A DNA stretch of 64,000 nt. It comes from an uncultured bacterium (GTDB taxonomy: Bacteria; Verrucomicrobiota; Kiritimatiellia; RFP12; UBA1067). The notes beneath the pieces were generated by a model. That model was not told the origin of the DNA and did no database searches. It saw nothing but the letters and a program-made list of their open reading frames with translations. Both the position numbers and the translations under genes were made by a program. Below are positions 10,172-60,930 of the stretch, piece after piece (positions within the stretch are counted from its first letter, which is position 1; each line of letters starts with the position of its first letter). The stretch is taken from assembly GCA_942493055.1 (NCBI GenBank), contig OW818680.1:4184529-4248528 (forward strand). The letters run 5' to 3'.

Positions 10172-10179
10172 TTCGAAAA

Positions 10180-10595
10180 GCTTCTCAATCGCTTGCGGTT
10201 AATCAAGCCAATGAAATTGCTATGATTGCTTTTTATCCTGTAAAAATCAAGCGAAACTTCTGAATTGATCCGCGGTTGGAAAACTCTTTCCCCACGGAAC
10301 ACACGGAATGTCACGGAAAAAGAACCAAATCATTTCTTCTGTGTTCTTCCTGTGCGTATGACAAGGCTTACCTATAGCTTCAGTTTTTACCGCAAAGAAC
10401 ACAAAGATCTCAAAGATGAACTTCTGTATGCACTGTTTTGTAATTTGGGTTAACCTGTTTTCTCTGTGTTCTATGCGTTCTTCCTGACCGCCGTAGCCTT
10501 GGCGTAGGCTGGTTGTGGTTAAAAAATCTCAATCCGCGTCAATCCGCGCAATCCGTAGCTAAAAGTTATCCCTCCGTTTATTTGTGTGGTCTTTG
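10180..10595. repeat. Cluster of dispersed repeat modules (taaaaatcaagcgaaactt; tttaccgcaaagaacacaaagatctcaaagat; ccgccgtagccttggcgtagg)
   Basis: 10383-10590 is a near-duplicate of 48615-48775. 10232-10250 matches 13179-13197. 10487-10506 matches the reverse complement of 3335-3354. The small ORF 10265-10453 is repeat-encoded. Confidence 0.75.
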
Positions 10596-10598
10596 CTG

Positions 10599-11180: not shown

Positions 11181-11259
11181 GGTTTCTTTAGTTACAGGCC
11201 TTGGGCGGTAATAATTAAAAAATAGGTTCCTATTCTATCCTGAATATTGAAACAGTGAC

Positions 11260-12327: not shown

Positions 12328-12348
12328 AACGTGTTGAGTTAGTAGTGT

Positions 12349-12906
12349 TTATCTCTCGGGTTGTGGGTCATTTGCATGTTCCAGAGTGCAGGGCGTAACG
12401 ACATAATCAATCCCTTTGTGATTACTTTTCTCTCGGGTTCCAACGAGATAAATCGGTGACAACCCCAGGTTCTTAAGTTTGTTGATCAGGTTTGTTCGAG
12501 ATGTGTCGGAAACACGTGCATCGGCCCAGATCAGACAGGAAAAATTTTCATATTTGGCAATGCGATTTTTAAGAATAGTGTCCAAAATTGATTCAGGCAT
12601 TCCCGCGTTATGGATGGAGAATCGTCCCTTGGCATCTAACTCAATCGACAGGTCTGCTGGAGTGTCGTTTTCAATGACGAGTCCGTTTTTCATGACAGGG
12701 AGTACAATGCCAGTATTTCGATCAGCGAGTTTTACATAACGATTGAGCGCGTTATCAGAATCCCAATAATCAACCCAACGGCTATAAATATTAAAACGTA
12801 GTTCTTCTTGTGTGAGCCTGGACGGAAAAAAAACAAAGAAGCATACAGCGATTAAAGCGAACAGTGAAATGGCCACTGCATATTTTATTCGTGTTTGTTT
12901 TTTCAT
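12349..12906 (-). CDS. Hypothetical membrane-anchored protein
   Basis: A 185-aa ORF with an N-terminal transmembrane segment. Its start overlaps the downstream 71-aa ORF by 4 bp, which suggests an operon. Confidence 0.5.
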   Translation of the reverse strand: MKKQTRIKYAVAISLFALIAVCFFVFFPSRLTQEELRFNIYSRWVDYWDSDNALNRYVKLADRNTGIVLPVMKNGLVIENDTPADLSIELDAKGRFSIHNAGMPESILDTILKNRIAKYENFSCLIWADARVSDTSRTNLINKLKNLGLSPIYLVGTREKSNHKGIDYVVTPCTLEHANDPQPER

Positions 12907-13118
12907 TTCTTTTCAAGCACAACCGTAATCCATCCCCTTACGCAGAGGCCGTCGGAGTTGCCGCCAAAGCTGTGCAGGTTGGTGATGGTCCAGCCTTCTG
13001 CTAGGAAATCCTTAAGATGTTCCTCGACAAGGCCGTGCTTGTCACCGTATGACCCTACAAGCATCCTGCCTTGACCATAGGCCGAATTATCTAAATAGAT
13101 CGTTACAAGTTTCTGCAT
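12903..13118 (-). CDS. Small DUF4177-like protein
   Basis: A 71-aa ORF whose AEGWTITNLHSFGGNSDG block resembles the DUF4177 pattern (...EGWELVS...). It is translationally coupled to the upstream gene. Confidence 0.5.
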   Translation of the reverse strand: MQKLVTIYLDNSAYGQGRMLVGSYGDKHGLVEEHLKDFLAEGWTITNLHSFGGNSDGLCVRGWITVVLEKK

Positions 13119-13169
13119 ACGTACATTCTCCTGCTGGCAACCTTGCCAGTCGTGCGCTTATCATTTCGC

Positions 13170-13456
13170 TTTATGCCGTAAAAATCAAGCGAAACTTGCC
13201 TATAACTTGTTTTGTTTTAACCGCAAAAACCGCAAAGAGATTGCGCGGCTATCTCATCCGCCTCACCCGTGGATACACGGACGGCGGAATGGATAGCCGC
13301 GCAGATGAATACTGATTCCATATCCATCAGTGAAAAACAAGTCTTTCGCTGATGGATATTTGATGCTATTCCGCGCAAATGTTCGCTCCGCCGTCCATGT
13401 ATTCATGGGCGAGGCGGGCGTGACATTTGCGCTCTTGTAGCGGTTTTTGCGGTACG
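13170..13456 (+). repeat. Structured dispersed repeat of about 250-280 bp, copy A (+ orientation)
   Basis: It is about 95% identical to the reverse complement of 16925-17165. Its modules are ccgcaaaaaccgcaaag, the inverted repeat gcgcggctatc...gatagccgcgc, the hairpin ccatcagtgaaaaacaagtctttcgctgatgg, and a conserved terminal module cgcaaatgttcgctccgccgtccatgtattcatgggcgaggcgggcgtgacatttgcg. Confidence 0.85.
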
Positions 13457-13490
13457 AATTAAGATGTGTTTACCCTGATGTGTAAAGCTA

Positions 13491-16400
13491 CTATTGGGGT
13501 TCGCAGAAGAAACGCACTTCGTCGAGGCCGATATAATTGTCGCGTCCAGGATACTTGGAGGTCACGTAGATCTGGAGGTAGCGCGTCTTGACGGGCTTGG
13601 AAAAGAAGAGGGATGAGCCTTTGTAGTCTTCCGTCCCTGTGGGTTGCGGGAAGGTCAGGGCATCCACAAGCGTGCCCCACAGCTTGCCCATTTCTGCATA
13701 CTCCGCTCCGTTGGGAGGCAGACGTGTGCCGGCATAGATCTGCGCACTCTGGATGTTGCGATGGCGCTCCGTGGTGGCGTGGTTGTAGCCCCAGTAATGC
13801 AGGCCGCGTACAGTAACCACTTCGCCCAGGTCAAAGGTGATCCAGGTGTTGGTCGCGTCATAGTTCAGCCAGACATCGTTCCCGTCGCTCCACATCGCCG
13901 TGGAGACCGTGGAGTTGGTGGTGACCTCTCCAGCAGGGGAACATCCCGAACCGTTGAGGGTGTTGCGCGCAGATGAACCTCTTTTTGAATAGGTGCTTTG
14001 CGCTGTTGCAGCGACAGGTGCTCGGAAGAGTTTGTTAATGACTTTCTTCACCTCGTTACTAAAGATTACTGGGGCAATAATATTGCCATTTTCATCGCGT
14101 GGCAGACGGCTCTCGACCGTCGGAAATTCGTCCTGACGATAGGCGCGGTTGATGAGCGGTGCGGTCCGCGTGCGAGGACGATAGGGGGACTGCGCATAGA
14201 CGTCCTGCACGGTTTCAGGATCGCGCGGCGGATAGTTGGATTGGCTAAATAGCGGATCTTCCGGATCAGGATCATCCATGGTGCGCACCTCCTGTTCGCC
14301 ACGGTAGGGACAGAGCGTATCGACCCAGAGGATCAGTTTGAACAGGCTGTTTTCATCGACCTTGACCTCGTGATGTTTGCCGCTGCTGGCGATGGCGATG
14401 AGGCGGCTGTTGGCCGAGAGTTTGGTCATGGCCGGCAAGGTACGATAATCTTCAGGCCTCCAAGGATGCGCCTCGGCCAGGATCGTATCCGCAATGCCGC
14501 CCTCGCATACGCCTGGGAAGGCGCCAATCTGGCGCTTCTTTCCCAGTGTCAATGTCAGATAGGGCTCCGGGAAGGTGCCCCCGTCTACGCTCCTGCGCAA
14601 GGTCAGGTCCAGCTTCTCTTTCCCTTTGCCGTTCCCTTGATGGCATTTGCCGCAGTAGGTGTCCAGAATAGGTTGGATGTCGCGTTCATATCCGAGCGAG
14701 TAACTTGCTCCCATCGGATAGGGTTTCAGTTTGGCCGGCGGCTTTTGCAAGGCGTCTCCCTTTGCGACCACGGAGCCTGCGCTGCCTGCCTCGTGACAGC
14801 CTGTACAGCCGCGATTCTCACCGGGCATCAGGTTCGTGAAGGAGCGCATCGTGTGGAGGGCGCGATGATTTTCATCCAGGACTTGGAAGTGAAGGGTCAC
14901 GCACGGCGGTGCCTCAAAGAAGACCGAGCCGTCCGCCTCGATCGGGACTGTGCCTAAGACGCGTTTGACCCCGTCGTTGTGCGTCACGGACATTACAGGC
15001 CCTGAGTGCATGTGCGCGGGATGACCTGGATGATCCACGTCCTGTAATTTTTTTCCGAGCGTGAAGGTGATATGATCAATCGTGAGCACGCGAAGGAATT
15101 TGCCCTTCTGACGCAGGTTGGCGGCCGCGCCTTGAAAGATGTCCGCACTGTAGAAGGTCCCGCTCTTGACAGGTGCCTTGTCCTTCTGCGCGCCTGCCCA
15201 TTGAATCTGGTCAGGGATGATCGGTGGCTTCTGCCGTGGAATCACGGGCATGGGGTAGAGCAGATTGTAGGTGCCGGAGTAGATAAGTTCGCGGTTGCCA
15301 TAGATGTCCATCAGGTAAATGCAGAAGGGCGTGCTGGCGGGATGCGCATTCTCTCCCCACACGGTACGATACCGCTGACGGGCAGAGACGAGGAAGAGTT
15401 CCTTGCTCAGCGGATAAGGCGACTTATAGCCGCCAAACTTTCCTTCAACATGATAAAGCGGCGTCTCCTGGCGTTCAGCTGGCCCGTTGCCCACCTCCGC
15501 CCACGGGGTGTCCCAGGTGACCTTGGTCAGTCCGTCCGGATAGTTGAGCCCTTTCGTGCGGTCAACAATACCGATGCTGGCGTTATAGACCAGATGGTGT
15601 CCGTGTCCTGCGAACATGACGCGATGGTCTCCGGGAATCGGATGCGCCTCCATCAGCATATCCGGCCAGTAACTCTGATTGCCCCAGTAGACGCTGGTGC
15701 CTGTGCCATCGGGATTGACGGTCCACAGACTTTGAATGCGCATCAGCTCCTTGTCCGTGTACTCCCAGCGCGTATAGAGGATGCGTCCGTCCTGCAGCAG
15801 GGTCGGTGTATATTCCGGTTCATTGCCGCCGCTCAGGATATAGATGTTCTTGCCGTCTGCATCGCAACGCGCGACCAAGGTGCTGGGGTGTCCCACGGTG
15901 CACCGCGCATAACTGTTGCCCCGGTTGGTCAGGAAGACAATCTTTCCGTCCGGCAGATAGATGGGGTCCATGTCGTCATAACTGCCTGACGTGAGCTGAC
16001 GCAGTCCTGTGCCATCCACATTGATTTCATACAGGTGGAAAACGCGTTCACCTTTGGGACGGAAACAGAAGAGAATATTCTTTGCGTCAAACGATACTTC
16101 CGGCCGCCAGAACCAGCCTGATCCTGTCTCGGGCGCGACACGTGTGAGCTTGCCTCCGGGATTCAGTCCGTCCAGCATCAGCAGGCGTCCGCAGTTCAGT
16201 TGCGCCTGCGGGTAGACACGGTGCATGGATTCGTGCGGGTAGCGTTCAGGCACATCGATGAAGAGCAGCTTTGAAAAGTTGATAACCGGATCTTTGAACA
16301 TGATCTGACGTTTGAGCGTCCGGATCTTCAGATAGAGGTCAGTCAGTTGGTTGGTCGTTGCAGTTGTTGAAAGCGCAGCGAGCTCTTTTTCCAAATTGTT

Positions 16401-16924: not shown

Positions 16925-17165
16925 TCGCAAAAGCCGCGAAGAAGAGCGCAAATGTCACGCCCGCCTCACCCATGAATACATGGACGGCGGAGCGAACATT
17001 TGCGCGGGGCAATCTCAAATATCCATCAGCGAAAAACTTGTTTTTCGCTGATGGATATGAAATCAGTATTCATCTGCGCGGCTATCCATTCCGCCGTCCG
17101 TGTATCCACGGGTGAGGCGGATGAGATAGCCGCGCAATCTTTTTGCGGTTTTTGCGGTAAAATGA
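16925..17165 (-). repeat. Structured dispersed repeat of about 250 bp, copy B (inverted relative to copy A)
   Basis: Its reverse complement aligns to 13205-13456 with only a few mismatches. With copy A it forms inverted repeats bracketing the 13491-16691 gene. The conserved module end faces the gene start. Confidence 0.85.
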
Positions 17166-17214
17166 TTTTAGAGCGAAGTTTTGCAAATTGCCATCTTCTG
17201 GGGCGTGGCAATGT

Positions 17215-18419: not shown

Positions 18420-18660
18420 CCACGGGGAGTATAGGACGCATCTACGATTTGTTTCAACCCATGGGTGTATAGGTGCCTCGCCTGCACATTCTCCTGGGCG
18501 TATAGGCGTCCCCGCCTGTACACTTTAAGCCAAAACCGTTGCTGGAGGCGTCCGGCAGCGGCCGGACCGCCAGTGCACAGGCGGGGACGCCTATGCGCCC
18601 AGGGGGCCTGCTGCTGCATAGGCGAGCCTATACGCCCAGCCTCCCCGCCCAGTCAACAGG
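18420..18660. repeat. Intergenic block with repeated CCTATACGCC-type motifs and a roughly 28-bp inverted repeat
   Basis: gggcgtataggcgtccccgcctgtacac (about 18497-18524) pairs with gtgcacaggcggggacgcctatgcgccc (about 18571-18598). gtatagg/cctatac units occur at least 6 times. A related motif recurs at 51990-52075. Confidence 0.7.
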
Positions 18661-36446: not shown

Positions 36447-38288
36447 TCAAACTGTGTCCTCTTCTGCTTGAGATTCTGTCACATCAGATAAAGTTAATCG
36501 AAGCGAATCTAAACGCAACTCACGATCCGCGAGCTTTTCTTGTCGTGCAAGCCACCTCTGGAACTTTTCTGGATCGCTTTCAATGTCGAGGCTCTCTCGA
36601 TACTGAGTTGCCTCAGCAGTCTCCGTCCAATGGGCAACTGTGAGTGGCTCGGACTGGCTAAGCCGATCCACTTCCTCGCGAACATTTTTGAGAGAGACAC
36701 GAAAGAATTCTTTGCGTGAGTTGACTTTGTTAATTTGCATAGCTAGAAAGCGTTTTTGGAGTTTGTGTTCAAGCACTGGAGCGTTATCACTCTTGATCCA
36801 AGCGTGAACATCGAAGTCAAAAGGTACGCTAGCGTCGCCGAGTTCGTCAATACGTTCTTGTGGGTTGGGACGACGCGTTTGGCCGATCTTGTAGATACCT
36901 TCTCCTAATGTGCCAACGTTTGAGATAATGTAAACAGTTCCAGTTTTGGTTTGCTGGGCGATCGTGAGTTTCTTCTCTGTGGCAGCAGCTAGGTCTAGTC
37001 GAAGAGTGTCGTTAGATTGCTGCATTTCGGCAATTTTGCGTTCCCACATTTCCTTGTCTTGTGCTGTCGCTTGCTCGAATGCAAGCCGTGCAGCAGCGAG
37101 TTCACGTTCTTTCTCTTCGAGTGCCTTCTTTGTGAGTTCCTCTTCCTTTGCCGCTTGACGAATCTGCTGTTCGTACTCCCTGCGCGCTTTCTCTTCATCG
37201 CGCATGCGTGCCTTGATCTCGCGCTGCTCTTCAAGTTGTCTGCGGACGAGTTCCTGAACGACGACAGCCCATTTCAATTCTTCAAGTCTAGCATTTAGAT
37301 AGGTATCATGAATACGGGCCTCTCGAAATGCTTTGCCGTTAAAATTGACGAGGCTGAAGGAGTCGCGAATCTCTTGCTCCAAAATCCCATAGTTGTCGCG
37401 TTTCACTCTTGTGAGTATGGCATCGACTCGGCCATTGAACGCATCAATAACAAAGCGGATGGCGGTCTCTCTACGGTTCGCCTCAACGTACTCACAGGTT
37501 GCAGCTTCGCCTTGCTCTACCATTCGGCGGGATTGCGCCCTGGCTGACTTGAGGGATTCGCCAGCTGAGGTGTAGCCAAACTCAACGGCCAAATTGTCGA
37601 GTAGACTATGCGTAGGAATAATGTATCTGTCGCCGTAACCTTCGATGATGTTACGCATGGCCTCAGTAGCACGTTCAAGAAGCTGCTTGTCGCGCAGTGA
37701 ATCATAAGCCTCTCCAGCAATCTCTCTTGCCCGTTTTTCTGCATCTTCGACGATTAAGCCAGCATCGCGCGTAGCTTGGTTGAGGCGTGCATCTGCCTGT
37801 TCATAGATCGTCTTCGCTGTCTCAGTTGCCTTAACACGTTCGGTCTCAGCGGCTGATCGAGTCTGCTCAAGGAGAGTCCTTGCTTGTGCACGTAATGCAG
37901 TTGCTTCCGATATGGCGGTATCGAGTGCCTGTCTAACCTCGACTTCAGCATTGCGAAGGGAAGCGAAATGGCTTAAGGCGTTTAGCTCTGCCATAGCCTT
38001 GGTAAGTTGGGTCTGTGAGTCTTCAACAATTCGGCGCGCTTCAGTTTCGTAATGTTGGCGGATTCGTTCTGCTTCGACGCGCATATCAGCGATTTGCTGG
38101 GCAATTAGTTTTTGCGCCTCGTCGAGGGACTGCGAGGTTTCTGACCTTATACGAACGGTTTCTTGCTTAGCCACGGCTACTTCTTTTTGGCGCTGGTCAG
38201 CAAGGTTTTTGAGGGTCTTTGTTTTTAAAAAGAAGACAACAAGGGCTATCAAAAGACCTATGCAGGCAATGGCGAGGAATATAGTCAT
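36447..38288 (-). CDS. DUF4041 + T5orf172 (GIY-YIG-like/MUG113) domain protein with an N-terminal transmembrane anchor and a long coiled coil
   Basis: A 613-aa ORF with N-terminal MTIFLAIACIGLLIALVVFFL and an extended Ala/Glu/Arg/Gln-rich coiled coil. The C-terminal GTVYIISNVGTLGEGIYKIGQTRR...RIDELGDASVPFDFDVHAWI...LEHKLQKRF...NSRKEFFRV matches the T5orf172/GIY-YIG core (YIGxT, R, E, N). Confidence 0.8.
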   Translation of the reverse strand: MTIFLAIACIGLLIALVVFFLKTKTLKNLADQRQKEVAVAKQETVRIRSETSQSLDEAQKLIAQQIADMRVEAERIRQHYETEARRIVEDSQTQLTKAMAELNALSHFASLRNAEVEVRQALDTAISEATALRAQARTLLEQTRSAAETERVKATETAKTIYEQADARLNQATRDAGLIVEDAEKRAREIAGEAYDSLRDKQLLERATEAMRNIIEGYGDRYIIPTHSLLDNLAVEFGYTSAGESLKSARAQSRRMVEQGEAATCEYVEANRRETAIRFVIDAFNGRVDAILTRVKRDNYGILEQEIRDSFSLVNFNGKAFREARIHDTYLNARLEELKWAVVVQELVRRQLEEQREIKARMRDEEKARREYEQQIRQAAKEEELTKKALEEKERELAAARLAFEQATAQDKEMWERKIAEMQQSNDTLRLDLAAATEKKLTIAQQTKTGTVYIISNVGTLGEGIYKIGQTRRPNPQERIDELGDASVPFDFDVHAWIKSDNAPVLEHKLQKRFLAMQINKVNSRKEFFRVSLKNVREEVDRLSQSEPLTVAHWTETAEATQYRESLDIESDPEKFQRWLARQEKLADRELRLDSLRLTLSDVTESQAEEDTV

Positions 38289-38315
38289 AAAACAATCTCC
38301 AGGGGATTACAAGGG

Positions 38316-39389
38316 TTAGGTAAGTTCTGGGTTCAATGCTGCACATTGAGTTGTAAGCTCTGCTCTAAGCCGTTGTGCCGTTTCGAGGGTTGCGTTGAAG
38401 TCTCTGTTGACGAATGCATCCTGTGGGGTGAGATCCGCGACCGTCAAAGGCGTGATGAGCTCGAAATCGCCAGTTTTTCGGGATGTTCTGAGGTCTCCAC
38501 GATGTGGCATACTCATAATTGAGTCTGACGGGTCGATCATATTGAAGTTAATAGAGTTGATGATATTTCGAGAAATTACGACAGAAAGGAACGGCCGCTC
38601 GACAGTCTGCCCAGTAGTTGTGTCCAAAGTCTCCGCCGAGGAGGAGATCAGCAGAGTCTCAATTGGAAGGAGTGCGAAAAGTTCACGGGCCGCTCGCAAA
38701 ACGCAACTACATATATAGTCCTGATAGATTTCTGCGAAACGGGATTTCGGGATGGCCTTGACGGAAACTTTTCCTGATGCAGTAAGAAGCTTCTGCTCCG
38801 CTGGAATTGCTTGTCGTCCATGAGTACTGAGCATGACCTCGACAAGGCGCGGATTGTGACTGGTGAAGTGAAAAGAGGAACCAATACCGTCGAGTTCAGA
38901 GAATGGGTTGATTTTTTCTACTGCCTCAATATAGGCATCTTGATCGCTGTTGAGAATTCGTCGGGCAAGACTCGCCATGTTTGACCATTCTGCGTAATCT
39001 GCGGCATAGGATTGAAGGGATTCCTCATAATCGCGTTCATCCTGCTGTTTTGCGAGTTCAATGGCAACATCTTTATTTTTGGCCGTTGGCAGGAGGGCGA
39101 GGCTCTGACGGGCTTTGAGTTCGTTATACTTCTGGCGACAAGGATGGATTGGAGGCAGGGCTACAGCGATGGCAAGCCAGTCTATCGCATCGGTTTGTTC
39201 CTTATGGAGAGAAAGTAGTACGTCTAGGGAGTTTTCATAAGCTTCGACCTCTAATCGTGACTGTTCGAGAGTTGTAAGCTTTTCAGCCTCCTTTATTTGG
39301 CGATCTAATTCACGTTGCCGGTTCTTGGCTTCGCGCGTCTGTACCCGGCCAGTGGCTCTTCTTGTGCGTATAGTAGTGTTTTGTGTCAT
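38316..39389 (-). CDS. Hypothetical protein (uncharacterised; partner of the DUF4041/T5orf172 gene)
   Basis: A 357-aa ORF ending 27 bp upstream of the DUF4041 gene start on the same strand. The N-terminus is a basic coiled coil (RRATGRVQTREAKNRQRELDRQIKEAEK). No recognisable catalytic motifs. Low GC. Confidence 0.6.
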   Translation of the reverse strand: MTQNTTIRTRRATGRVQTREAKNRQRELDRQIKEAEKLTTLEQSRLEVEAYENSLDVLLSLHKEQTDAIDWLAIAVALPPIHPCRQKYNELKARQSLALLPTAKNKDVAIELAKQQDERDYEESLQSYAADYAEWSNMASLARRILNSDQDAYIEAVEKINPFSELDGIGSSFHFTSHNPRLVEVMLSTHGRQAIPAEQKLLTASGKVSVKAIPKSRFAEIYQDYICSCVLRAARELFALLPIETLLISSSAETLDTTTGQTVERPFLSVVISRNIINSINFNMIDPSDSIMSMPHRGDLRTSRKTGDFELITPLTVADLTPQDAFVNRDFNATLETAQRLRAELTTQCAALNPELT

Positions 39390-51472: not shown

Positions 51473-51501
51473 GGCGCGCCCGTGCGGGTGCGCCTTTTTT
51501 T
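51473..51501 (+). terminator. Rho-independent terminator after the Gfo/Idh/MocA gene
   Basis: The GC hairpin ggcgcgcccg-tg-cgggtgcgcc (with one G-U pair) is followed by TTTTTTT, 26 bp after the stop codon. Confidence 0.7.
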
Positions 51502-51842
51502 ATGTACGATGTCGATAATTCTACCGCAAAAACCGCGAAAGATTGCACGGCTATAGGGGCCCGGCGGATCCGCACGGGTTCCATTAATCCGCCTCACCCG
51601 TGATCCGCCAAGGCTACGGCGGCCAGGCGTCGGCGTTCCCAGAGGATAAGGTGGCGGAGCCGTCCCGGCTCCGGCGGGCAAGATGCCCGCGCTCCTTTGA
51701 GGGCAGCAATAGAAAGGAGCGTGGGCGCCTGCCTCGCCGTAGCCTCAGCGTAGGCGGGTCCCGCCCGCATGAAAGAGGAGGGGCATTCTTGGCGACAGGG
51801 GGACAGACAAGAATGGCGCTAAGATAAGCGACGGCTCGCCAA

Positions 51843-52075
51843 AGTCTCGCCCTCCAACTTGCGGAGCTGTATTAAAGTGGAGGGCGAAGCTGTGCTGAGC
51901 CGCAAAAATACGGCCCGAACGTGCTTATCTTGGAGCCATTCCTATCTGTCCACCAGTTGCCCGTCTACCATGTTGCCGATATGAAAAGTTAGTGGCATTG
52001 GGCGAGGACGCCTATACGCCCAGGAGTTGCAATGAATCAAAACGCACCCGTTGTATAGGGTCTCGGTATTTTCCT
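51843..52075. repeat. Upstream region of the giant helicase carrying copies of two dispersed motifs (gtctcgccctccaac...ggagggcgaagctgtgc; gacgcctatacgcccagg)
   Basis: 51843-51915 is related to the tandem units at 60722-60870 (ctggagggtgaggctgtgccgaaccgtgcaaa). 52007-52025 matches the CCTATACGCC family at 18420-18660. gacagggggacagacaag (51793-51810) also occurs at 36349-36366. Confidence 0.65.
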
Positions 52076-52167
52076 GTAGCGCGGGATTTTTCAGTTGCGC
52101 TTTGTTTTCATCGATAGTAAAATCATCCCAATCTGCAACAGTTCAAATGATAAGGAAGGATTTAGGC

Positions 52168-55100
52168 ATGTCTGCTGATTTACAGCCAATGAATGGGACA
52201 GTCAAAATAGACCTGGACTATTGCAACAAGATTAATCTGTCCGCCTATCAGAAGCGAATTCTGATTGTCCGCTCTCTGCGTCTCACCAATGCGACTGAGC
52301 AGGTTTTGGAGGGCGTGGTCTGTGTCATCTCCGCAGCACCGGCGATGATCTGTGCAAAGAAAGTCTTTATCGAACAGCTCCCGGCGGGGGCGGAATATGT
52401 TGTCCAGCAGGTGGATGTCGAGGCGGATTATGCCTTTATCACGCAGCTCTCGGATAAAGTGGTCGGGCAGGTGACGGTCTCTGTCTATCAAGGTGACGTA
52501 CTCCTGGCGGAAAGCGCCTACCCCATGGAGGCTTATGCAGCAGACCAGTGGCTCGGCGCCTCTCTTTATCCGGAGTTGCTGTGCTCCTTCGTAACGCCGA
52601 ACCTGGAGGTCATCTCGGGCTTAATGGGGGAGGTCGCCGTTGAGCTGGAGCGGTTGACAGCGTCGTCTGCGATTAACGGGTATCAGAGCCAGGACAAGAA
52701 GAGAGCCTACGCGATATGCACAGCGGCGTATCGAGCCGTCCTAAACTGGCAAATCAACTATGCCAATCCGCCTGCCTCCTTTGAAGGGCAGCGCATCCGT
52801 TTTGCGGATGCGATTTATAAATTCAGGCTGGGAACCTGCCTGGATACGACACTGCTTTTAGCCTCCGTAGTGGAGCAATGCGGGCTCCATCCTGTCATCA
52901 TGCTCACGAAAGGGCACGCCTATTTAGGGTGCCACCTGAAAGACTTCTATTTTTCAGAACCCGTGGTGGCTGACTTACAAACCATTCGTAAGCTGGTGGG
53001 ACTGGATGACTTCGTGGTCTTTGAGACGACCTGCGTGACGAAGGGCACCTCTTTTGAGAGCGCGGAAGCAGAGGCGAGGAGGGCTCACCTGAATGACGAT
53101 GACGCGTTTGTCTTTGCTCTTGATGTGATGTGCGCCCGCAAATGTGGAATATTGCCCCTGCCATTGAAACGCAGCACAGACGGGATTGAGTTTAATCCGC
53201 CGGAGACGCAGAAGCGAAATACAGGCAAGGAGACCATCAGGGAACTGGAAACCGCGATTGAAGTGGAGGAACAGTCTGTCGCTGGCAATCGCATCATGCG
53301 CTGGCGGCAGAAGCTGCTTGACCTCTCCTTGCGTAACAGGCTGCTGAATGCGAAGGAGAACAACAAACAGTTCGTGCGGCTGCTGTGCCATGATATTTCG
53401 GCGCTTGAGGATAATCTCGCCTCGCGCCAGTCTTTTCAGATCTTGCCGTTTGGAAACCTCGTTCATTCGGATGAGCAGGAACTGCGGAACATGAGCCTGT
53501 TGAGCAAGCTGCAGATCACAGACGATATAAAAGCGCGAATTGAAAGTGAAATGAAGCAAGGCCGGCTCTTATCCCCCTTGTCGGAAGAGGTTCTCAAGGC
53601 CCGGCTCAAGGAGTTGTATCGTCAGGGCATAGCAGATATCGAAGAGGGCGGTGTGAATACCCTTTTTCTGGCGGCAGGTTTTTTGTCGCATCCCAATCCG
53701 AATCAACCGACCTCCTGCATCGCACCCATCATCCTCATTCCGATCCGACTTGAGCGGCCCTCCGGCAATCAGGCGGTGACCCTTTCACGGATGGACGATG
53801 AAGCGGTGATCAATGTGACGCTTCTTGAGTTGCTGCGCAAGGAGTTTAAGGTGAGCATCCCCGGCGTGGATCCCCTGCCGACCGATGACATGGGTGTCGA
53901 TGTGAAGAAGGTGATGCAGATCTTCCGGCAGGCCCTGTGCGATGTGAAGGGGTGCGAAGTGCTTGAAGAGATTGCACTCGGGCGATTTTCCTTCAACAAG
54001 TTCATCATGTGGAATGACCTGACGGCACGCGAGGAAATCCTGAAAAACAATGAAATCGTAAGGCATCTCGTATCCGGCGAAGCCATGTTTGACGATGGCG
54101 TGGAGGTCTTTGACCCGAAAGATGTTGATTCCAATCTGGTGTATTCGGATCTCTTTTGCCCTGTCAGCGCAGACTCCTCGCAAGTCGCGGCCGTCATATA
54201 CTCGGGCATGGACAAGAATTTTGTGCTCCATGGTCCGCCCGGGACAGGGAAGTCGCAAACGATCACCAACATCATCGCCCATAACCTCGCCAGGGGTAAG
54301 AAAGTCCTTTTTGTCTCAGAAAAGAAGGCGGCGCTTGACGTGGTCTATCGTCGGCTCAGCCAGATCGGGCTGCAGCCGTTCTGCCTTGAATTGCACTCCA
54401 ACAAGACGGGCAAGGCGGATGTGCTGAAGCAGTTTTCCGAAGTCCTTGAGCTGCCGGAGATGGGTGCGCCCCAGGGATGGGACGCGACAGTCACGGAACT
54501 GGCAAAACTTCGGCAGGCGCTTCATTTATATACGACAGACCTGCATCACGTTTATCCGAACAGGTTGTCGGCATACGACTGCTTTGCCAGGGTCATGAGC
54601 TGCGCGCAGGGAGCGTGGATTGACGGATGGTTTTCGTGTGACCTGCTAACCGACACGACCGAGCAGTATGAAGAGAGAAAAGCATTTGCTGCGGATCTGG
54701 GGCAGGCCTACCGGTATGTGTCCGAAGCGGCTCAGCAGGCCTTTTCGGGGCTTGCCACCTTTGAGTGGAACCCGCAAGTCGAGCGGGAATTCAAGATGCG
54801 TGCAGAAGGGCTCCGGGATTGTGCGAGAGCGCTGGCAAAGGTCTTTCAGCCCCATGCGACCACGCTTGGACTTCCAGCGGAGGAGACGGGGTTAAAGAGG
54901 GTTTATGAGGTCGCTGCTCTTTTTGAGGTGCTGAAAGACTCAGAAGCGATCCCGTCGGATTTCATATCACAGGACTTTGCCTCAAACAGGGTGGAACTGG
55001 AGCGAGCCATTGGCAATGCCCTCCAGTTTGTAAAGGCGAGGGATGAGCTGGCTCCCTACAATCTGGATGCACTGGCCGCTGTGGACTGGGATTCGGTCCT

Positions 55101-57993
55101 GTCGCGCATCACAAAAAATGGCCAGGCCTCATTCCTCGTGAGGTTCATGAGGAACTGGCAGCTGGTTCGGGAACTGAAGCATATCAAGAAGCTGGGGGCT
55201 GATAAACTCTCGCTCACAGAGCTGAAGGCGAAGGCGGTCATCTGTAAAGCCTATGTCGGTCATGCCCGGCAATTTAAGGAAGACGCTTCTTATTTGCAGC
55301 GTAAAATGGGCGGGATATGGAAGGGGGAGGGGACGGACTGGAAGCAGGTCAAATCCGTTTTTGACAGGTCGAGCATGTTTTTTGATGCGCTCGCGGCTTG
55401 TTGCGGGAACAGTCAGGCGCAACTGGCCTCCAGCTGTGAGAAGCTTGCCCTCCTGTTGCCGCGTTGCCAGGAACTCTATGGCCCCGGACGGACTGAGCGA
55501 GAAAAGCTCAATCAATTTTTATCCGCCTTCAACCAGTTCGCGGAAGCTTTGGAGTCATTCAATGACCGGTACGGTTGCATTGCAACCATCACGGACGAGC
55601 AGACGCTGGACAAGGTGGAGCTGCGGATGGGCCAACTGCTGCTGCATCTGAACAGCCTTCGGCATTTCTGTATATGGCAAGGGCATAAGGACAAGGCGCT
55701 GAACAGCGGCATGGGTGAGGTTCTTCATAAGTTGCAGACACTCGATGGATTTGCGCAAAAAATGACTGAGCTTTTTGATTATGCCTATTGCCAGAAGATG
55801 CTTGATCAGATCCTGTCGGCAAGCCAGACGCTCAGTCAGTTTGTGGGAGAGACGCGAGACACGCAGGTCAAGCGTTTTGCTGAGGTGGATCACCTCTATG
55901 CGGAGTGCACGAAAAAGATGATTATCGCGCAGCTCTCGCAGCGCCTTCCCAGGCGGATAAACGGTAATATACCGAACACGTCGGAGCTGGGCATCTTGAA
56001 GAGGGAGTGCGCAAAACGCGCGCGACACATGCCTGTGCGCAAGTTGCTGTCACAAATCCCCACGCTGGCCAAGACGCTGAAACCCTGTTTCCTGATGAGC
56101 CCGCTGTCGGTCGCGCAGTACTTGCCGCCGGATATGGAGGGCTTTGACCTCATCGTCTTTGACGAAGCCTCGCAGATACCGGTGTGGGATGCGATTGGTG
56201 TCATTGCCCGAGGGAAGCAGCTCGTCGTTGTGGGCGATCCGAAACAGATGCCACCGACGAACTTTTTCCAGAAGGGAGAGGCTGACGATGAAGCAGGGCA
56301 AGGCGATGAAGAGTTCATGGATGATCTGGAGAGTATCTTGGATGAGTGTATTGCGGCTGATATCCATCCTGTCTATCTGAACTGGCATTATCGCAGCAGA
56401 CATGAATCCCTTATTACGTTTAGTAATAAGCATTACTACGACAATCGCTTGTTTACATTTCCTTCTGCCTCCAATCATCCGCATTTCGGGGTCAAGTTGG
56501 TTCATGTGAAAGATGGCTATTATGATCGGGTCTCGACACGGACCAATCGACGTGAGGCAGAGGAAATTGTCAGCAATATTCTGGAAAGGGCCAGGGATTC
56601 GGTGCTCTGTAAAAAGAGCGTCGGTATTGTGACTTTCAGTATTGTACAGCGCCAGCTTATCGAAGATCTGCTTGATGAGGCAAGAGAGAAGCATCCGGAG
56701 TTGGACACCTTCTTGGAGGAGGCATCAAAGCTCGAACCTTTGTTTGTCAAAAATCTTGAAAACGTTCAGGGTGACGAGCGTGATGTGATCCTCTTTTCAG
56801 TTTGCTATGGTGCTGATCGCCAGGGCAAATTCTTCATGAATTTTGGGCCGTTAAATCGCGAGGGGGGGGAGCGCCGCCTTAATGTTGCGATTACCCGTGC
56901 AAAAGAGCAGGTGATCGTGTTTAGTTCAATACTCAGCAAGGATATTGATTTGGATCGGACCATGGCGATCGGTGCCCAGCATTTGAAGGAGTTCCTGGAG
57001 TACGCGGAGAAAACGACAACTGTCCAAATAGGGAACACCGTTGCAGCCACACAAGAGGATCTGTTTGTGGCCTCCGTTGTCCAGTTCCTTGAACAAGAAG
57101 GGTATCAGGTGCGGCGCAATGTCGGAAACTCCGAATGTCGCATAGCAGCGGCCATTGTTCATCCAGACGATCCTGGCGCTTACCTGCTCGGCATTGAGTG
57201 TGACGGGGCGGGTTATATGAGCCAGCTTACAGCACGGGATCGTGATATCTTACGTCGTGCTGTCCTGCAGGGACTCAACTGGACGATCTATCGGATGTGG
57301 ATTGCCGACTGGTGGCATGACCGCGAGCGAGCACGTCAGAGGCTGTTGGCCGTTGTCAAGGATGCGGAGAAGGGGTTGTTGAAGATGCCTGCCGCTCCTG
57401 TTCTAAAAGAGGCTGACAAACAATCGTTGGAGGTTTCGAAACCGCAGCCGCTGTCTGCCCGAAAATCCTTGGCCAGCGCGTATAAGGTGTGGTCGAAAAA
57501 ACGTAGTCAGCAGCAGGATTTCTTTTATGAGCCCAGGGCGATACCGCTCATCACGCAGCAACTGAGCGAGATTATTGACATCGAGGCTCCGATTTGTGAG
57601 CCCCTTCTGCGAAGGCGTCTGCTCCAGCACTGGGAGTTCGGGAGGGCAGGCGAGCGTATCCAGGCGGTGATTTCCCGGTGTTTGCCTGCTGACGTGACGG
57701 TCACTGCGCTAGGCGACGAGAACGTGTATTGGTCCAGCCGAGTCTCAGCAAACAACTACGTGCAGTATCGCAACCGCGTGGATGAAGACACTGAAAAGCG
57801 TGAGATTGCCGAAATTCCGCCTGAAGAGCTTGCAAATGCGATGCATGAAATATTATTGGAATTGCACTCCTGCCCAGAGGATGCACTCTTTTCAGAAACG
57901 ATCAAAGTGTTTGGATTCCGAATGGTGACAGAAAGTGCGCGCAATCGACTCCAGACGGCCATGGCGTGGTTACGGAAGAGCGGAAGAATTTAG
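52168..57993 (+). CDS. Giant DUF4011 / SF1 (Upf1-like, AAA_11+AAA_12) helicase / PD-(D/E)xK (Vsr/DUF559-like) nuclease / DUF3320 protein with an N-terminal transglutaminase-like domain; HheA-like
   Basis: The start was chosen at MSADLQ (nt 52168), which has an RBS (aaggaagga); the longer ORF runs to 52051. The DUF4011 hallmark WRQKLLDLSLRNRLLN is present. Walker A VLHGPPGTGKSQTITN and downstream helicase motifs (DEASQ, VGDPKQMPPT, and a helicase C-terminal VAITRAKEQVIVF). A Vsr/DUF559-like block (ECRIAAAIVHPDDPGAYLLGIECDGAGYMS). A DUF3320-like tail. An N-terminal papain-like/transglutaminase-like motif (FRLGTCLDTTLL...HAYLGCH). About 1940 aa. Confidence 0.85.
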   Translation: MSADLQPMNGTVKIDLDYCNKINLSAYQKRILIVRSLRLTNATEQVLEGVVCVISAAPAMICAKKVFIEQLPAGAEYVVQQVDVEADYAFITQLSDKVVGQVTVSVYQGDVLLAESAYPMEAYAADQWLGASLYPELLCSFVTPNLEVISGLMGEVAVELERLTASSAINGYQSQDKKRAYAICTAAYRAVLNWQINYANPPASFEGQRIRFADAIYKFRLGTCLDTTLLLASVVEQCGLHPVIMLTKGHAYLGCHLKDFYFSEPVVADLQTIRKLVGLDDFVVFETTCVTKGTSFESAEAEARRAHLNDDDAFVFALDVMCARKCGILPLPLKRSTDGIEFNPPETQKRNTGKETIRELETAIEVEEQSVAGNRIMRWRQKLLDLSLRNRLLNAKENNKQFVRLLCHDISALEDNLASRQSFQILPFGNLVHSDEQELRNMSLLSKLQITDDIKARIESEMKQGRLLSPLSEEVLKARLKELYRQGIADIEEGGVNTLFLAAGFLSHPNPNQPTSCIAPIILIPIRLERPSGNQAVTLSRMDDEAVINVTLLELLRKEFKVSIPGVDPLPTDDMGVDVKKVMQIFRQALCDVKGCEVLEEIALGRFSFNKFIMWNDLTAREEILKNNEIVRHLVSGEAMFDDGVEVFDPKDVDSNLVYSDLFCPVSADSSQVAAVIYSGMDKNFVLHGPPGTGKSQTITNIIAHNLARGKKVLFVSEKKAALDVVYRRLSQIGLQPFCLELHSNKTGKADVLKQFSEVLELPEMGAPQGWDATVTELAKLRQALHLYTTDLHHVYPNRLSAYDCFARVMSCAQGAWIDGWFSCDLLTDTTEQYEERKAFAADLGQAYRYVSEAAQQAFSGLATFEWNPQVEREFKMRAEGLRDCARALAKVFQPHATTLGLPAEETGLKRVYEVAALFEVLKDSEAIPSDFISQDFASNRVELERAIGNALQFVKARDELAPYNLDALAAVDWDSVLSRITKNGQASFLVRFMRNWQLVRELKHIKKLGADKLSLTELKAKAVICKAYVGHARQFKEDASYLQRKMGGIWKGEGTDWKQVKSVFDRSSMFFDALAACCGNSQAQLASSCEKLALLLPRCQELYGPGRTEREKLNQFLSAFNQFAEALESFNDRYGCIATITDEQTLDKVELRMGQLLLHLNSLRHFCIWQGHKDKALNSGMGEVLHKLQTLDGFAQKMTELFDYAYCQKMLDQILSASQTLSQFVGETRDTQVKRFAEVDHLYAECTKKMIIAQLSQRLPRRINGNIPNTSELGILKRECAKRARHMPVRKLLSQIPTLAKTLKPCFLMSPLSVAQYLPPDMEGFDLIVFDEASQIPVWDAIGVIARGKQLVVVGDPKQMPPTNFFQKGEADDEAGQGDEEFMDDLESILDECIAADIHPVYLNWHYRSRHESLITFSNKHYYDNRLFTFPSASNHPHFGVKLVHVKDGYYDRVSTRTNRREAEEIVSNILERARDSVLCKKSVGIVTFSIVQRQLIEDLLDEAREKHPELDTFLEEASKLEPLFVKNLENVQGDERDVILFSVCYGADRQGKFFMNFGPLNREGGERRLNVAITRAKEQVIVFSSILSKDIDLDRTMAIGAQHLKEFLEYAEKTTTVQIGNTVAATQEDLFVASVVQFLEQEGYQVRRNVGNSECRIAAAIVHPDDPGAYLLGIECDGAGYMSQLTARDRDILRRAVLQGLNWTIYRMWIADWWHDRERARQRLLAVVKDAEKGLLKMPAAPVLKEADKQSLEVSKPQPLSARKSLASAYKVWSKKRSQQQDFFYEPRAIPLITQQLSEIIDIEAPICEPLLRRRLLQHWEFGRAGERIQAVISRCLPADVTVTALGDENVYWSSRVSANNYVQYRNRVDEDTEKREIAEIPPEELANAMHEILLELHSCPEDALFSETIKVFGFRMVTESARNRLQTAMAWLRKSGRI

Positions 57994-58002
57994 AGCCTTT
58001 TC

Positions 58003-58620
58003 TTATGCCATCTTGATGATGCCGCGCTGAAGGGCGGTTTTGACAGCTTCGGTGCGGTTGGTGGCGCCGAGTTTCTCAAAGATGATGGTGTTATAGAAGC
58101 GTATCGTCTTTTCGCTGAGGCGAGTCGTGTCGGAGATTTCTTTATTGGAGAGGCCTTTTGCCATCAATGTGAGCACTTCGAGTTGGCGCGAGGAGAGTCC
58201 CTGCTGGTGTTCGCGCCGTTCAATTTGCTGTAGGATGTTTTTAGGGAAGACAGTCTTGCCGCTCTGCACGGCCCGCACCGCCTCGATGATGGTATCAGGC
58301 TGCGCGCTTTTCATGATGTAGCCGGAGGCGCCCAGATGAAAGGCTTGATAGATATCCTCTTCCGTGTCTGACATGGTCAGCATGATCACTTTGATGGACG
58401 GGTATTCCGTGCGCAATAATTTGAGTAGGTCAATGCCAGTGCTATCCGGCATCCGGATGTCGAGCAGGATAATGTCCGGTTTTTCGGTTTTGAGCCGGGC
58501 GAGCGCCTGTTTCTGGTTCTCGGCCTCTGACAGGACAATGATGTCCGGTGTGAGCTGGAAGGCCATACGCAGGCCCATGCGCACGATGTTGTGGTCATCA
58601 ATCAGCATGACATTGATCAT
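58003..58620 (-). CDS. LuxR/NarL-family two-component response regulator
   Basis: A REC domain (MINVMLIDDH...D, a phospho-acceptor DIRMPD, and a conserved K) plus a C-terminal LuxR HTH (LSSRQLEVLTLMAKGLSNKEIS). It is convergent with the helicase, 9 bp apart, and overlaps the histidine kinase gene by 4 bp. Confidence 0.9.
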   Translation of the reverse strand: MINVMLIDDHNIVRMGLRMAFQLTPDIIVLSEAENQKQALARLKTEKPDIILLDIRMPDSTGIDLLKLLRTEYPSIKVIMLTMSDTEEDIYQAFHLGASGYIMKSAQPDTIIEAVRAVQSGKTVFPKNILQQIERREHQQGLSSRQLEVLTLMAKGLSNKEISDTTRLSEKTIRFYNTIIFEKLGATNRTEAVKTALQRGIIKMA

Positions 58621-60704
58621 GACGGCCTCCTGTTTTTCGGGAGCGGGAAGGTCAGGATGACGCGTGTCCCGTGTCCAGGCTCACTCTCGATTTGAAAGAG
58701 GCCGTCAATCCTGCGCATGCGCTCTTTCATGCCGATTAAGCCATAATGGCCTGTGGAGGGAAAAGGAGTCGAGGCGGATTCGAACCCTTTCCCGTTGTCA
58801 TCAATGGTGATTTGAAAGCCCTCCTGCGCAGGCGAGGCGGTGATCACGATTTCGGTTGCCTCAGCATGCTTCACGATGTTGGTGATGGATTCCTTGATGA
58901 CCGCCAGAAGTTGGGTGGAACTGGACTCCGGAATATCTTTGGGCAACAGATCGAGCCTGCAGGTCAAGGTGTGTTCAGGGATACTGGGAGCCAAGGCTGC
59001 AATGGCTTGATCAAGCGAGGTTCCTTTGATGGTTGCTGCGCGGAGGTCCCAGACAGAGGTGCGCAACATGGCATGTGCATCCTCCAGGGCTTGCCGGGTG
59101 ATTTGCAAGAAGCCCGCGACTTTTCCCGGTGCGGCCTCTGTGGCCTTCAAGGCGCTTTGGACTTGAAGGCTGATGCCAGCCAAGTTTTGCTGGAGTGTAT
59201 CATGCAAGTCAGCGGCAATGCGCTTGCGCTCTGCCAGCAGGAGGTCCATGTCATGCTGGCGCTGCTTCTGCTTGCTGATCCGGATGCGAAGTCCGATGAT
59301 GATGCCGATCATCAGCAAGAGCAACAGGGCGGTTGTGATCTGCAGTCCTATTTCACGCTGGCGTGTGAGCCATGGCCCGCCCGGCAAGATCTGGATGTCA
59401 GTGGTGTCACGCAACAAGAGTTTCCAGGACTGAGGAAAGTTCTCGCGCTGATCCACGGTGCGATGAAAGACGAGGATCCCTGTGATCTTGACAGGCTGAC
59501 TTTTGGGAAGCCTTTCTACAAAGGACGGCACATTGTTTCGTTCTTCGAGAAGCGCACTATAAACAGAGCCTTCGGCAAGGAAGAGGATGTTCCTCTGGCC
59601 TTCAACCGGTTCGCCCGCCTGTACGATCTCCCCCCCTATTTGCACGACCCTTCCGTCAAGGTCCAGAGTGGCGGCGCCTGGGCTGGGTTGCTTGCTTGCG
59701 GCAATAATATCGGGCGAGAGGACGAGCGGCTCCGGAGGTGCGCGCGTCCCTGTTTTCCGGATCAGCGCTTCGTTCAATTCTGCGAAACAGTCTCCCATGG
59801 CCGGGAACCCGACAGCATCTATCACGGCCCCTGCCTGAAGCGGCGACTCCTCGTGCGTATTGATTTTGAGCGCATGGTCCCCCTCTTGGATGTAAAGTGC
59901 GCTCCCCGTGGAGTAGGTCACAATGCCGCTGACGCGCCTCCGGTGGCCATCCCTGTAGCCGTCGCTGACGGGGAGCATCTCATTGAGCCGGGTGAGGGGC
60001 CGGCGGAAGGGGTCTTCGGGGGAGGGCTTCAGCACCACGATGTCATTCGTTCCTGAGACATGGAGGCGGATCCCGAGAAATTCAGCCCGCTGGTTGTAAA
60101 AGGGCGAGAGACAGCCGCTGATCATGATTTCCGCGTCGACATACTGTTGCGAAGCTGGCAGGGTGGACGGCATCTGGACTTCCGCAGTAAAGAGGCCATC
60201 GGGAGTCATGATGTTCATCTGGACAAAGTGCGAATGGGTGAGCCCGGAGGTTGCGATTTTAAATGTTTGCGGGACGCCTTGCAGGGAGATGAGCGGATTG
60301 TTCTGGCTGATCGGACGGAGGTCCGCAAGTCGTTTAACCGGAGGGGAGGGAAGCTTCTGATGTCCCATGTGCCGGATCTCGGACGCCTGGACGCCAGGGA
60401 CAAGGCGTCCGGCGGATGTCGTGCCGATAATCTCAAGCACGTCGCCGACGTTGATCGCACGCGGAGGCCGCGCGGAGGGGCGGATAAAAAGAGCCATGTC
60501 CGTTGGGTCATCGAGCGCCGCAAGGGTAAAGGGCGCATCCGCCCAGTCGAAGCGATGCGCAACGATACCGGTCAGCCGGACCGGAAGCCCCTTGCCTGCT
60601 TCGATACGCGACAGTTGCTTGACGGCACGAATCGTCGTGAGGTCTTCCGCCTGAGCAGAACACCAGCCCGTGACCATCACAAAAACCAGCATCAATCTTT
60701 TCAT
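58617..60704 (-). CDS. Sensor histidine kinase (HisKA_3/NarX-type) with a large periplasmic sensor domain
   Basis: The start was chosen at MKRLMLVFVMVTGWCSAQA (signal peptide, nt 60704). The longer ORF to 60926 would read through a repeat. It has a periplasmic region of about 470 aa, a transmembrane segment (LLLLLMIGIIIGL), a HisKA_3 H-box (ADLHDTLQQNLAG), and an HATPase (DDNGKGF...GLIGMKERM...GHGTRV). Confidence 0.85.
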   Translation of the reverse strand: MKRLMLVFVMVTGWCSAQAEDLTTIRAVKQLSRIEAGKGLPVRLTGIVAHRFDWADAPFTLAALDDPTDMALFIRPSARPPRAINVGDVLEIIGTTSAGRLVPGVQASEIRHMGHQKLPSPPVKRLADLRPISQNNPLISLQGVPQTFKIATSGLTHSHFVQMNIMTPDGLFTAEVQMPSTLPASQQYVDAEIMISGCLSPFYNQRAEFLGIRLHVSGTNDIVVLKPSPEDPFRRPLTRLNEMLPVSDGYRDGHRRRVSGIVTYSTGSALYIQEGDHALKINTHEESPLQAGAVIDAVGFPAMGDCFAELNEALIRKTGTRAPPEPLVLSPDIIAASKQPSPGAATLDLDGRVVQIGGEIVQAGEPVEGQRNILFLAEGSVYSALLEERNNVPSFVERLPKSQPVKITGILVFHRTVDQRENFPQSWKLLLRDTTDIQILPGGPWLTRQREIGLQITTALLLLLMIGIIIGLRIRISKQKQRQHDMDLLLAERKRIAADLHDTLQQNLAGISLQVQSALKATEAAPGKVAGFLQITRQALEDAHAMLRTSVWDLRAATIKGTSLDQAIAALAPSIPEHTLTCRLDLLPKDIPESSSTQLLAVIKESITNIVKHAEATEIVITASPAQEGFQITIDDNGKGFESASTPFPSTGHYGLIGMKERMRRIDGLFQIESEPGHGTRVILTFPLPKNRRPS

Positions 60705-60719: not shown

Positions 60720-60930
60720 AAGAAACTGGAGGGTGAGGCTGTGCCGAACCGTGCAAACGACTGTCACTTTTCCGGCTCGCCACAGTCTCGCCCTCCAACG
60801 TACGCTCGACACACGCCATAGGTCTGGAGGGTGAGGCTGTGCCGAACCGTGCAAATGACTGTCAATGTTTCGGCCCGCCATCCGGCGGCTGCCGGACCCT
60901 CCAGAAACATCATTCCAACATTCCATTCAA
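60720..60930. repeat. Tandem direct repeat of about 48 bp (2 copies, 100-bp period) plus a terminal ATTCC arm
   Basis: ctggagggtgaggctgtgccgaaccgtgcaaaYgactgtca at 60722-60770 and again at 60822-60870. gtctcgccctccaac at 60790 matches 51848. catcattccaacattccattc at 60903-60925 is a GGAAT-arm fragment. Confidence 0.75.

Follow-up and report, generated by a model that had tools for sequence, protein, structure and literature searches.

The window analysed here is a 64-kb stretch of contig OW818680.1 from an uncultured member of the Kiritimatiellia, and all coordinates are positions within it unless a locus name precedes them. Its plus strand carries one large gene in a single open reading frame (ORF) that is free of stop codons from 52051 to 57993. 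The start codon was placed at the ATG at 52168, a few bases 3' of the Shine-Dalgarno-like AAGGAAGGA, which gives a product of 1,941 aa. The gene is interpreted, with a probability of about 85%, as coding for an anti-phage defence enzyme that works on its own as a single protein and belongs to the ProA family (NF058533; PDC-S37), the sister of Hhe. The gene and the predicted parts of its product are as follows.

52168..57993, plus strand: gene assigned to the ProA anti-phage family (ORF with ribosome-binding site; NCBIfam NF058533 antiphage_ProA, PADLOC PDC-S37; 1,941 aa plus stop)
52201..52533, plus strand: N-terminal beta-sandwich domain (residues ~12-122)
52570..53157, plus strand: transglutaminase/papain-like core (residues ~135-330; putative triad Cys224-His250-Glu286)
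53170..53292, plus strand: low-confidence linker between the N-terminal module and DUF4011 (residues ~335-375; predicted local distance difference test score, pLDDT, 41-62)
53311..53835, plus strand: DUF4011 (residues 382-556; Pfam PF13195, 1.5e-37, full-length 1-158/158)
54148..56925, plus strand: superfamily 1 (SF1) Upf1-like helicase (residues ~661-1586; Pfam AAA_11, AAA_12, AAA_19 and AAA_30)
57064..57351, plus strand: Vsr-like PD-(D/E)xK nuclease REase_MTES_1575 (residues 1633-1728; Pfam PF18741, 6.9e-27)
57523..57663, plus strand: DUF3320 (residues 1786-1832; Pfam PF11784, 3.3e-11)

The order DUF4011 - SF1 helicase - Vsr-like nuclease - DUF3320, proposed in a first-pass annotation of this DNA, was borne out by Pfam. 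The helicase is split: AAA_11 begins at residue 670 (5e-15), AAA_12 covers residues 1389-1586 (5e-19), and an insertion of ~580 residues separates Walker A (K695) from Walker B (D1332 and E1333). According to sequence matches in the PDB, the nearest solved helicases are IGHMBP2, Upf1, and Sen1. The SF1 helicase motifs and the core residues of the Vsr-like nuclease are intact in the window protein. Helicase residues K695, D1332, E1333, Q1360, Q1534, and R1577 were invariant in all 69 aligned sequences, as were nuclease residues D1679 and D1691, while Y1683 was found in 68 of the 69. A winged helix-turn-helix (wHTH) DNA-binding domain has been reported to overlap DUF3320 in proteins of this type (PMC3710099).

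Family Assignment, Distribution and Earlier Description

The NCBIfam equivalog NF058533 ("anti-phage protein ProA") matched the window protein end to end (residues 23-1918 against model positions 1-1902 of 1903) with 1908.3 bits against a cutoff of 1500. The Hhe equivalog NF042953 reached 767.1 bits against a cutoff of 2000, in three partial stretches (E 4e-230). In PADLOC, the best match was the candidate system PDC-S37 (1256 bits, E = 0), followed by Hhe (542 bits, 6.6e-163). The PDC-S37 match spans residues 374-1940, and the transglutaminase (TGase)-like module therefore lies outside that model. Two plasmid-encoded proteins served as controls. WP_021314612, a PGAP-annotated Hhe of 1,911 aa from a Klebsiella plasmid, scored 2735 on the Hhe model (cutoff 2000) and 1131 on the ProA model (cutoff 1500), which it matched only from model position 428. 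An enterobacterial protein with the full architecture, from a Raoultella plasmid, scored 2224 bits on the ProA model. Because of the curated cutoffs and these controls, the window gene is identified as ProA and not as Hhe. The first-pass description of an HheA-like protein thus holds for relatedness, given the E-values on both Hhe models and an identity of ~37% with the Klebsiella Hhe across residues 466-1718, and fails for membership of the Hhe family.

The window protein shows no architectural difference from ProA (NF058533; PDC-S37): the domain order, the length (~1,900-2,050 aa in the family), the predicted active-site residues, and the N-terminal beta-sandwich and TGase-fold module ahead of DUF4011 are the same. 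It is a divergent orthologue located in a non-defence neighbourhood. Hhe (HheA; Gao et al. 2020; NF042953) is likewise a single-gene system with DUF4011, a split SF1 Upf1-like helicase, an MTES_1575 nuclease, and a C-terminal region, but it begins directly with DUF4011 and has neither the beta-sandwich nor the TGase module. Its extreme N-terminus is the counterpart of the DUF4011 that starts at residue 382 of the window protein. The comparison with a bona fide Hhe that the first-pass annotation had called for confirmed this, since WP_021314612 lacks the ~370-residue N-terminal module and carries its DUF4011 motif at residue ~24. Judged from these sequence comparisons, the N-terminal module is the feature that separates ProA from its sister family.

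A genome scan with one genome per species yielded 80 loci encoding full-length homologues, N-terminus included, so that at least 80 species carry the gene. Identity to the window protein was 43-50% in Victivallales, Kiritimatiellia, and Verrucomicrobia, and 33-40% in many Bacteroidales. When residues 11-335 were searched exhaustively with HMMER against the representatives of 1.84 billion clusters (50% identity), the N-terminal module was found in 2,930 clusters at E <= 1e-3 and in 684 at E <= 1e-30; most full-length members of these clusters have ~1,900-2,050 aa and carry the module at residues ~10-340. Of 556 matches in plasmid records, 71 spanned >=80% of the query, whereas the Hhe-type matches started at residue 466. 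No near match of the window locus was found among plasmids, and the enterobacterial ProA gene had no near match in complete E. coli genomes. The exact protein (100% identical, P0267) is already present in NCBI, on a 6.1-Mb contig and, in the collection searched, without a product name.

In longer variants, DUF4145, or CpXC with or without Sel1 repeats, precedes the same core (P0226, P0135, P0144; P0075, P0077, P0101); such variable N-terminal additions are typical of modular immune proteins. One protein of 3,055 aa has the TGase module at residues 1090-1415, and another (P0161; 2,189 aa) carries an extension of ~160 residues with no Pfam match. A full-length ProA homologue (38% identity, residues 12-1917) is also encoded by GenBank MT836269.1, a faecal contig of human origin, 11.4 kb long, that bears the label 'Bacteriophage sp.'. 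This copy is either borne by a phage or satellite or part of a mis-binned Bacteroides fragment.

The first-pass annotation considered a protease-like module fused to a helicase-nuclease as unusual. This view did not survive, since the module is a hallmark of a large curated family, and a 2013 study had already reported the fusion (Anantharaman, Makarova, Burroughs, Koonin, Aravind, Biol Direct 8:15; PMC3710099). The giant MTES_1575-like proteins of that study, after which the Pfam nuclease family matching the window protein is named, combine a transglutaminase-like peptidase, an SF-I helicase, a Vsr-family restriction endonuclease (REase), and the wHTH overlapping DUF3320. Modification genes are absent, and direct recognition of invading DNA was proposed, with the transglutaminase domain suggested as a further line of defence through protein cleavage. 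The window protein shares this single-chain arrangement and the absence of a modification partner. It differs from the 2013 examples, a subgroup that additionally carries an N-terminal HEPN (RNase) domain: Pfam and the predicted model revealed neither HEPN nor DUF4145 in the window protein, and there is no room for HEPN because the beta-sandwich already begins at residue ~12. The N-terminal extension is not universal in DUF4011 helicases, yet it defines the ProA family, which in substance removes its novelty. The window gene is an ordinary member of a catalogued family, and its protease-like domain is real but already known.

The N-Terminal Transglutaminase-Like Module

The first-pass annotation had assigned a transglutaminase/papain-like Cys/His core to the N-terminus from two strings, FRLGTCLDTTLL (found at residues 219-230) and GHAYLGCH (residues 249-256), and had proposed a Pfam check. 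That check, run on residues 1-380, gave no match even at E <= 10, including to Transglut_core or related models. At the fold level, the core was supported by both structural matches and conservation of the Cys and His. More than 120 homologues of the N-terminal region were recovered in a word-indexed search, many of them continuing into DUF4011. In a 54-sequence alignment, F141, P144, Y198, Q208, R211, C224, D226, E236, H250, and R324 were invariant, and E286 was near-invariant.

The closest structural neighbours of the predicted module are enzymes: 3kd4, PNGase, TglA, LapG, and PeiW. The comparison figures were 9.1 for PNGase, 8.9 for TglA, 8.5 for LapG, 8.3 for the cysteine protease 3isr, and 8.1 for PeiW, followed by TG2 (8.0), Rad4 (8.0), XPC (7.9), menin (7.1), and CPR-C4 (6.8). 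Foldseek recovered the same families with weak E-values (7e-3 upward). In the predicted model, C224 starts the helix 224-237, H250 starts the strand 250-256, and E286 directly follows the strand 282-285; as modelled, this placement is the canonical papain/transglutaminase arrangement.

The triad was examined in 68 module-bearing sequences, comprising the window protein, 66 genome loci, and one plasmid ProA. The Cys was present in 67 of the 68, the His in all, and the Glu in 67 (the remaining sequence has Asp), with D226 and R324 present throughout. From the alignment and the model, the TGase-like domain is likely to contain an active site, and the predicted structure places the module in the transglutaminase-like/papain-like superfamily at the fold level only. 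BDI_1141/3kd4, LapG, PeiW/PeiP, TglA, and PNGase have no detectable sequence similarity to the window domain. The third triad residue is Asp in the known TGase-like cysteine proteases and in PNGase, but Glu in the window protein. Moreover, the known TGase-like proteases and PNGase are secreted or free-standing, whereas the window domain is fused to a helicase-nuclease.

Genomic Neighbourhood and Upstream Repeats

According to Pfam, the gene is flanked in the window by genes for a GFO/IDH/MocA oxidoreductase, an AraC regulator, a URO-D-like protein, a GH120-like hydrolase, and a two-component system. None of these neighbours was found beside any of the 80 homologous ProA loci. In the flanks, the sole exception to the lack of significant PADLOC matches was a weak match to a CARF model (1.9e-05) in the HTH region of the response regulator.

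Other neighbourhoods were observed in other lineages. In Bacteroides, ProA is located between rpsA and a DUF5686 gene, with a convergent reverse-transcriptase (RT) gene directly downstream (1-bp gap in B. finegoldii). Retron-type RTs made up 14 of the 125 pooled flank proteins, with a best PADLOC E-value of 1.7e-107 to retron type III-A. These genes are placed as follows.

L063:16003-17130, minus strand; L203:12867-13997, minus strand; 12 further Bacteroidales loci: retron-type RT, convergent with ProA and directly downstream of it (best PADLOC match retron type III-A, E ~1e-105)

Many of these loci come from closely related species, and the 14 cases therefore do not count as independent. In Bacteroides and Dysgonomonas, ProA and the retron RT may form a fixed defence islet or a functional pair. 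In a Rikenellaceae locus (L010:4923-8851, plus strand), two DUF262/GmrSD_N genes are located directly upstream of ProA. Likewise, a DUF262/GmrSD_N pair stands directly upstream of Hhe on a Klebsiella plasmid (L081:1-3181, plus strand). GmrSD-type restriction genes and DUF4011 helicase-nucleases may therefore be recurrently associated. On enterobacterial plasmids, ProA is flanked by insertion sequence (IS) elements. The shifting contexts, the plasmid and IS-flanked copies, and the G+C content at third codon positions (GC3) fit a mobile stand-alone defence cassette.

The gene is followed in the window by a two-component system.

58003-58620, minus strand: LuxR/NarL-type response regulator (Pfam)
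58617-60704, minus strand: HisKA_3 histidine kinase (Pfam; start re-assigned)
58003..60704, minus strand: response regulator and kinase operon, a neighbour of ProA and not part of the system

The convergent arrangement and the 9-bp gap noted in the first-pass annotation were confirmed, as the ProA stop ends at 57993 and the response regulator ORF runs from 58003. The response regulator ORF overlaps the kinase ORF by 4 bp. The mechanical ORF listing over-called the kinase start (60926); an ATG at 60704 gives the signal-peptide-like N-terminus MKRLMLVFVMVTGWCSAQA, and the segment 60705-60930 is therefore upstream DNA. No Pfam domain was found in the N-terminal sensor region of the kinase (~480 residues). 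Membership of the two-component system in the defence system was considered and rejected, since homologues of the response regulator or kinase occurred beside none of the 80 ProA loci.

The motifs that the first-pass annotation saw upstream of both ProA and the kinase proved to be real. They are copies of a 25-mer, TGGAGGG[CT]GA[GA][GA]CT[GT]TG[CG][CT]GA[GA]CCG (consensus TGGAGGGCGAGGCTGTGCCGAGCCG), which occurs exactly five times in the 64-kb window against a chance expectation of none.

51791..51961, no strand assigned: nested inverted-repeat element upstream of ProA (outer arms 51791-51829 and 51923-51961)
51832-51856 and 51878-51902: inner inverted 25-mer pair upstream of ProA, inside the 51791-51961 element
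60727-60751 (plus), 60773-60797 (minus), and 60825-60849 (plus): three 25-mer copies upstream of the corrected kinase start, spanning 60727..60849

The 25-mer was also found in at least 120 metagenome contigs (a lower bound) with a GC content of 44-70%, usually as a hairpin pair with a loop of ~20 nt and with unrelated flanks. Eighty of these contigs (L083-L162) were fetched and tested; ProA was encoded by none of them, and a weak response-regulator homologue by only one. Three direct copies ~108 nt apart were observed in L132 and four copies in L144. In L105, L117, and L130, the outer-arm sequence GAATGGCGCTAAGATAAGC recurs beside the 25-mer, which suggests a composite element of ~170 nt.

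The ProA upstream region (720 bp; 51501-52167) is a mosaic of at least four short repeat families, and every further copy of these in the window falls between genes (about 3334-3374, 10483-10513, 13220-13271, 13440-13461, 17107-17166, and 18491-18639). The segment 51560-51970 folds far better than shuffled controls (z = -8.7). No Rfam family was detected anywhere in the window at the gathering threshold, and a sigma-70 scan of the ProA upstream region gave no convincing promoter. The 25-mer looks like a repetitive extragenic palindromic (REP)-like or miniature inverted-repeat transposable element (MITE)-like sequence or a small structured-RNA family, and is probably a dispersed REP/MITE-like element and not an operator shared by ProA and the two-component system.

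Elsewhere in the window, two ORFs (36447-38288 and 38316-39389) have a GC3 of ~0.47 against 0.68-0.83 in other parts, and the 10-14 kb region (about 10000-14000) has a GC content of 0.465-0.483. Both low-GC segments (36447-39389 and about 10000-14000) may be horizontally acquired islands.

Proposed Function and Alternatives

The architecture was predicted in 2013 to be that of a modification-independent defence protein with an additional proteolytic arm (PMC3710099). In the mechanism proposed here, DUF4011, the SF1 Upf1-like ATPase motor, and the C-terminal DUF3320/wHTH region would engage invading or aberrant nucleic acid; no modification partner would be involved, because no methyltransferase is associated with the gene. 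The Vsr-like PD-(D/E)xK nuclease would then cut the DNA. Several T7 DNA-metabolism genes trigger Hhe, and one Bas63 phage gene is toxic only to Hhe-carrying cells (bioRxiv 10.1101/2024.10.10.617714). By analogy with these data, ProA would probably be activated by phage DNA-metabolism or replication activities, not by one phage protein, and its activation could be toxic to the host. The beta-sandwich and the TGase-like core, with its Cys-His-Glu triad intact, would most likely add a second activity as a cysteine peptidase or transamidase. That activity could be directed at a protein of the phage or the host, which would be cut or modified, or at ProA itself, which would be processed at the flexible linker (residues 335-375). 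In this scheme, the adjacent two-component system and the repeat found upstream of both loci would be incidental.

A role in defence is supported by the retron-type RT and GmrSD neighbours elsewhere, the patchy and context-independent distribution, and the uniform architecture across a large family. Several observations weigh against the ProA interpretation or parts of it. The anti-phage label is taken from the name curated by NCBI. In the window, the gene is not part of a defence island, its metabolic and regulatory flanks being without significant PADLOC matches apart from that noted above, and its GC3 is only mildly atypical (0.64 against ~0.68-0.83 in most neighbours). The nuclease motif is partly variable, with E1677 replaced by L or I in most homologues, and the His of the AAYH motif of Hhe is replaced by Met in the window protein. 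With regard to the N-terminal module, a profile built from its alignment gave no TGase match among PDB sequences and no sequence similarity to solved TGase-fold proteins, and the catalytic roles proposed for Cys224, His250, and Glu286 derive from the fold, the secondary-structure positions, and conservation.

Three other explanations of the gene or its control were considered. A housekeeping helicase-nuclease for nucleic-acid surveillance or repair would be consistent with the Upf1, Sen1, and IGHMBP2 relationship, with the absence of a defence island in the window, and with P. aeruginosa, where every isolate has been reported to carry a DUF4011 gene as a conserved core gene next to a defence hotspot (PMC10250203). 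It is nevertheless improbable in view of the curated NCBI anti-phage equivalog, the IS-flanked copies on plasmids, the neighbourhoods that differ from lineage to lineage and in some cases include retron-type RT or GmrSD genes, and the variable N-terminal additions. Control of ProA by the LuxR/kinase system, or co-regulation with it through the 25-nt inverted-repeat motif, as the first-pass annotation hinted, appears more doubtful still. Within the window, the motif is indeed confined to the intergenic regions upstream of ProA and of the kinase operon, and the genes converge across the 9-bp gap; however, the 80 ProA loci have neither a response regulator nor a kinase homologue in their flanks, and the motif recurs in at least 120 metagenome contigs whose surroundings are unrelated; of the 80 contigs tested, none encodes ProA and one has a weak response-regulator homologue. 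In addition, the 25-nt arms, GC-rich hairpins, and loops of ~20 nt appear to resemble REP/MITE elements and not NarL-type boxes, and the remainder of the ProA upstream region consists of other dispersed intergenic repeats. The hint of common regulation is therefore not supported. Least credible is a true Hhe (HheA) that has acquired a lineage-specific extra domain and would represent a novel Hhe variant. The strong similarity of the helicase-nuclease core to the Hhe models and the ~37% identity to the Klebsiella protein would agree with it; against this, the protein exceeds the ProA cutoff but stays far under that for Hhe, the match of bona fide Hhe to the ProA model does not start before position 428, and the module, with its ~2,930 clusters across many phyla, is not lineage-specific.

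Within the ProA interpretation, the role of the TGase-fold domain is a separate matter. Tentatively, it is proposed to be catalytically active as a cysteine peptidase or transamidase, with its activity tied to the sensing of nucleic acid by the helicase. Once phage replication is detected, ProA would not only cut DNA but also cleave or cross-link a specific protein of the phage or the host, or undergo self-processing at residues 335-375; we place this full scheme below even odds. The main alternative to catalysis is a structural or sensor role as in Rad4/XPC and menin, in which the module would bind without catalysis, its ligand being a phage protein or damaged DNA, and would do no more than gate the helicase-nuclease. 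This was judged unlikely, because Cys224, His250, and Glu/Asp286 are kept in 67-68 of the 68 homologues, which come from several phyla and share 30-50% identity; D226, Q208, R211, and R324 are kept as well. An active site would be expected to show this pattern, whereas the Cys is typically lost from TGase-fold domains that are inactive, and the nearest structural neighbours of the module are enzymes.

For annotation, the gene should be labelled as encoding a ProA-family anti-phage protein, and not Hhe or a "DUF3320 domain-containing protein". The locus shows that ProA reaches bacteria of the Planctomycetes-Verrucomicrobia-Chlamydiae (PVC) group, with the nearest homologues in Victivallales and Kiritimatiellia, and that it is able to sit outside defence islands. 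Beyond one more orthologue, it gives no special leverage on the role of the TGase triad. The remaining interest is family-wide and concerns what the conserved TGase-like triad does in a helicase-nuclease immune protein. In the literature searched, no biochemical demonstration of a dual protease-nuclease activity was found, only the prediction of 2013; papers on serine-recombinase markers and on metagenomic selections contain no reference to ProA, Hhe, or DUF4011. If the proposed activity of the TGase-fold domain is true, ProA would be a dual protease-nuclease immune effector in one polypeptide.

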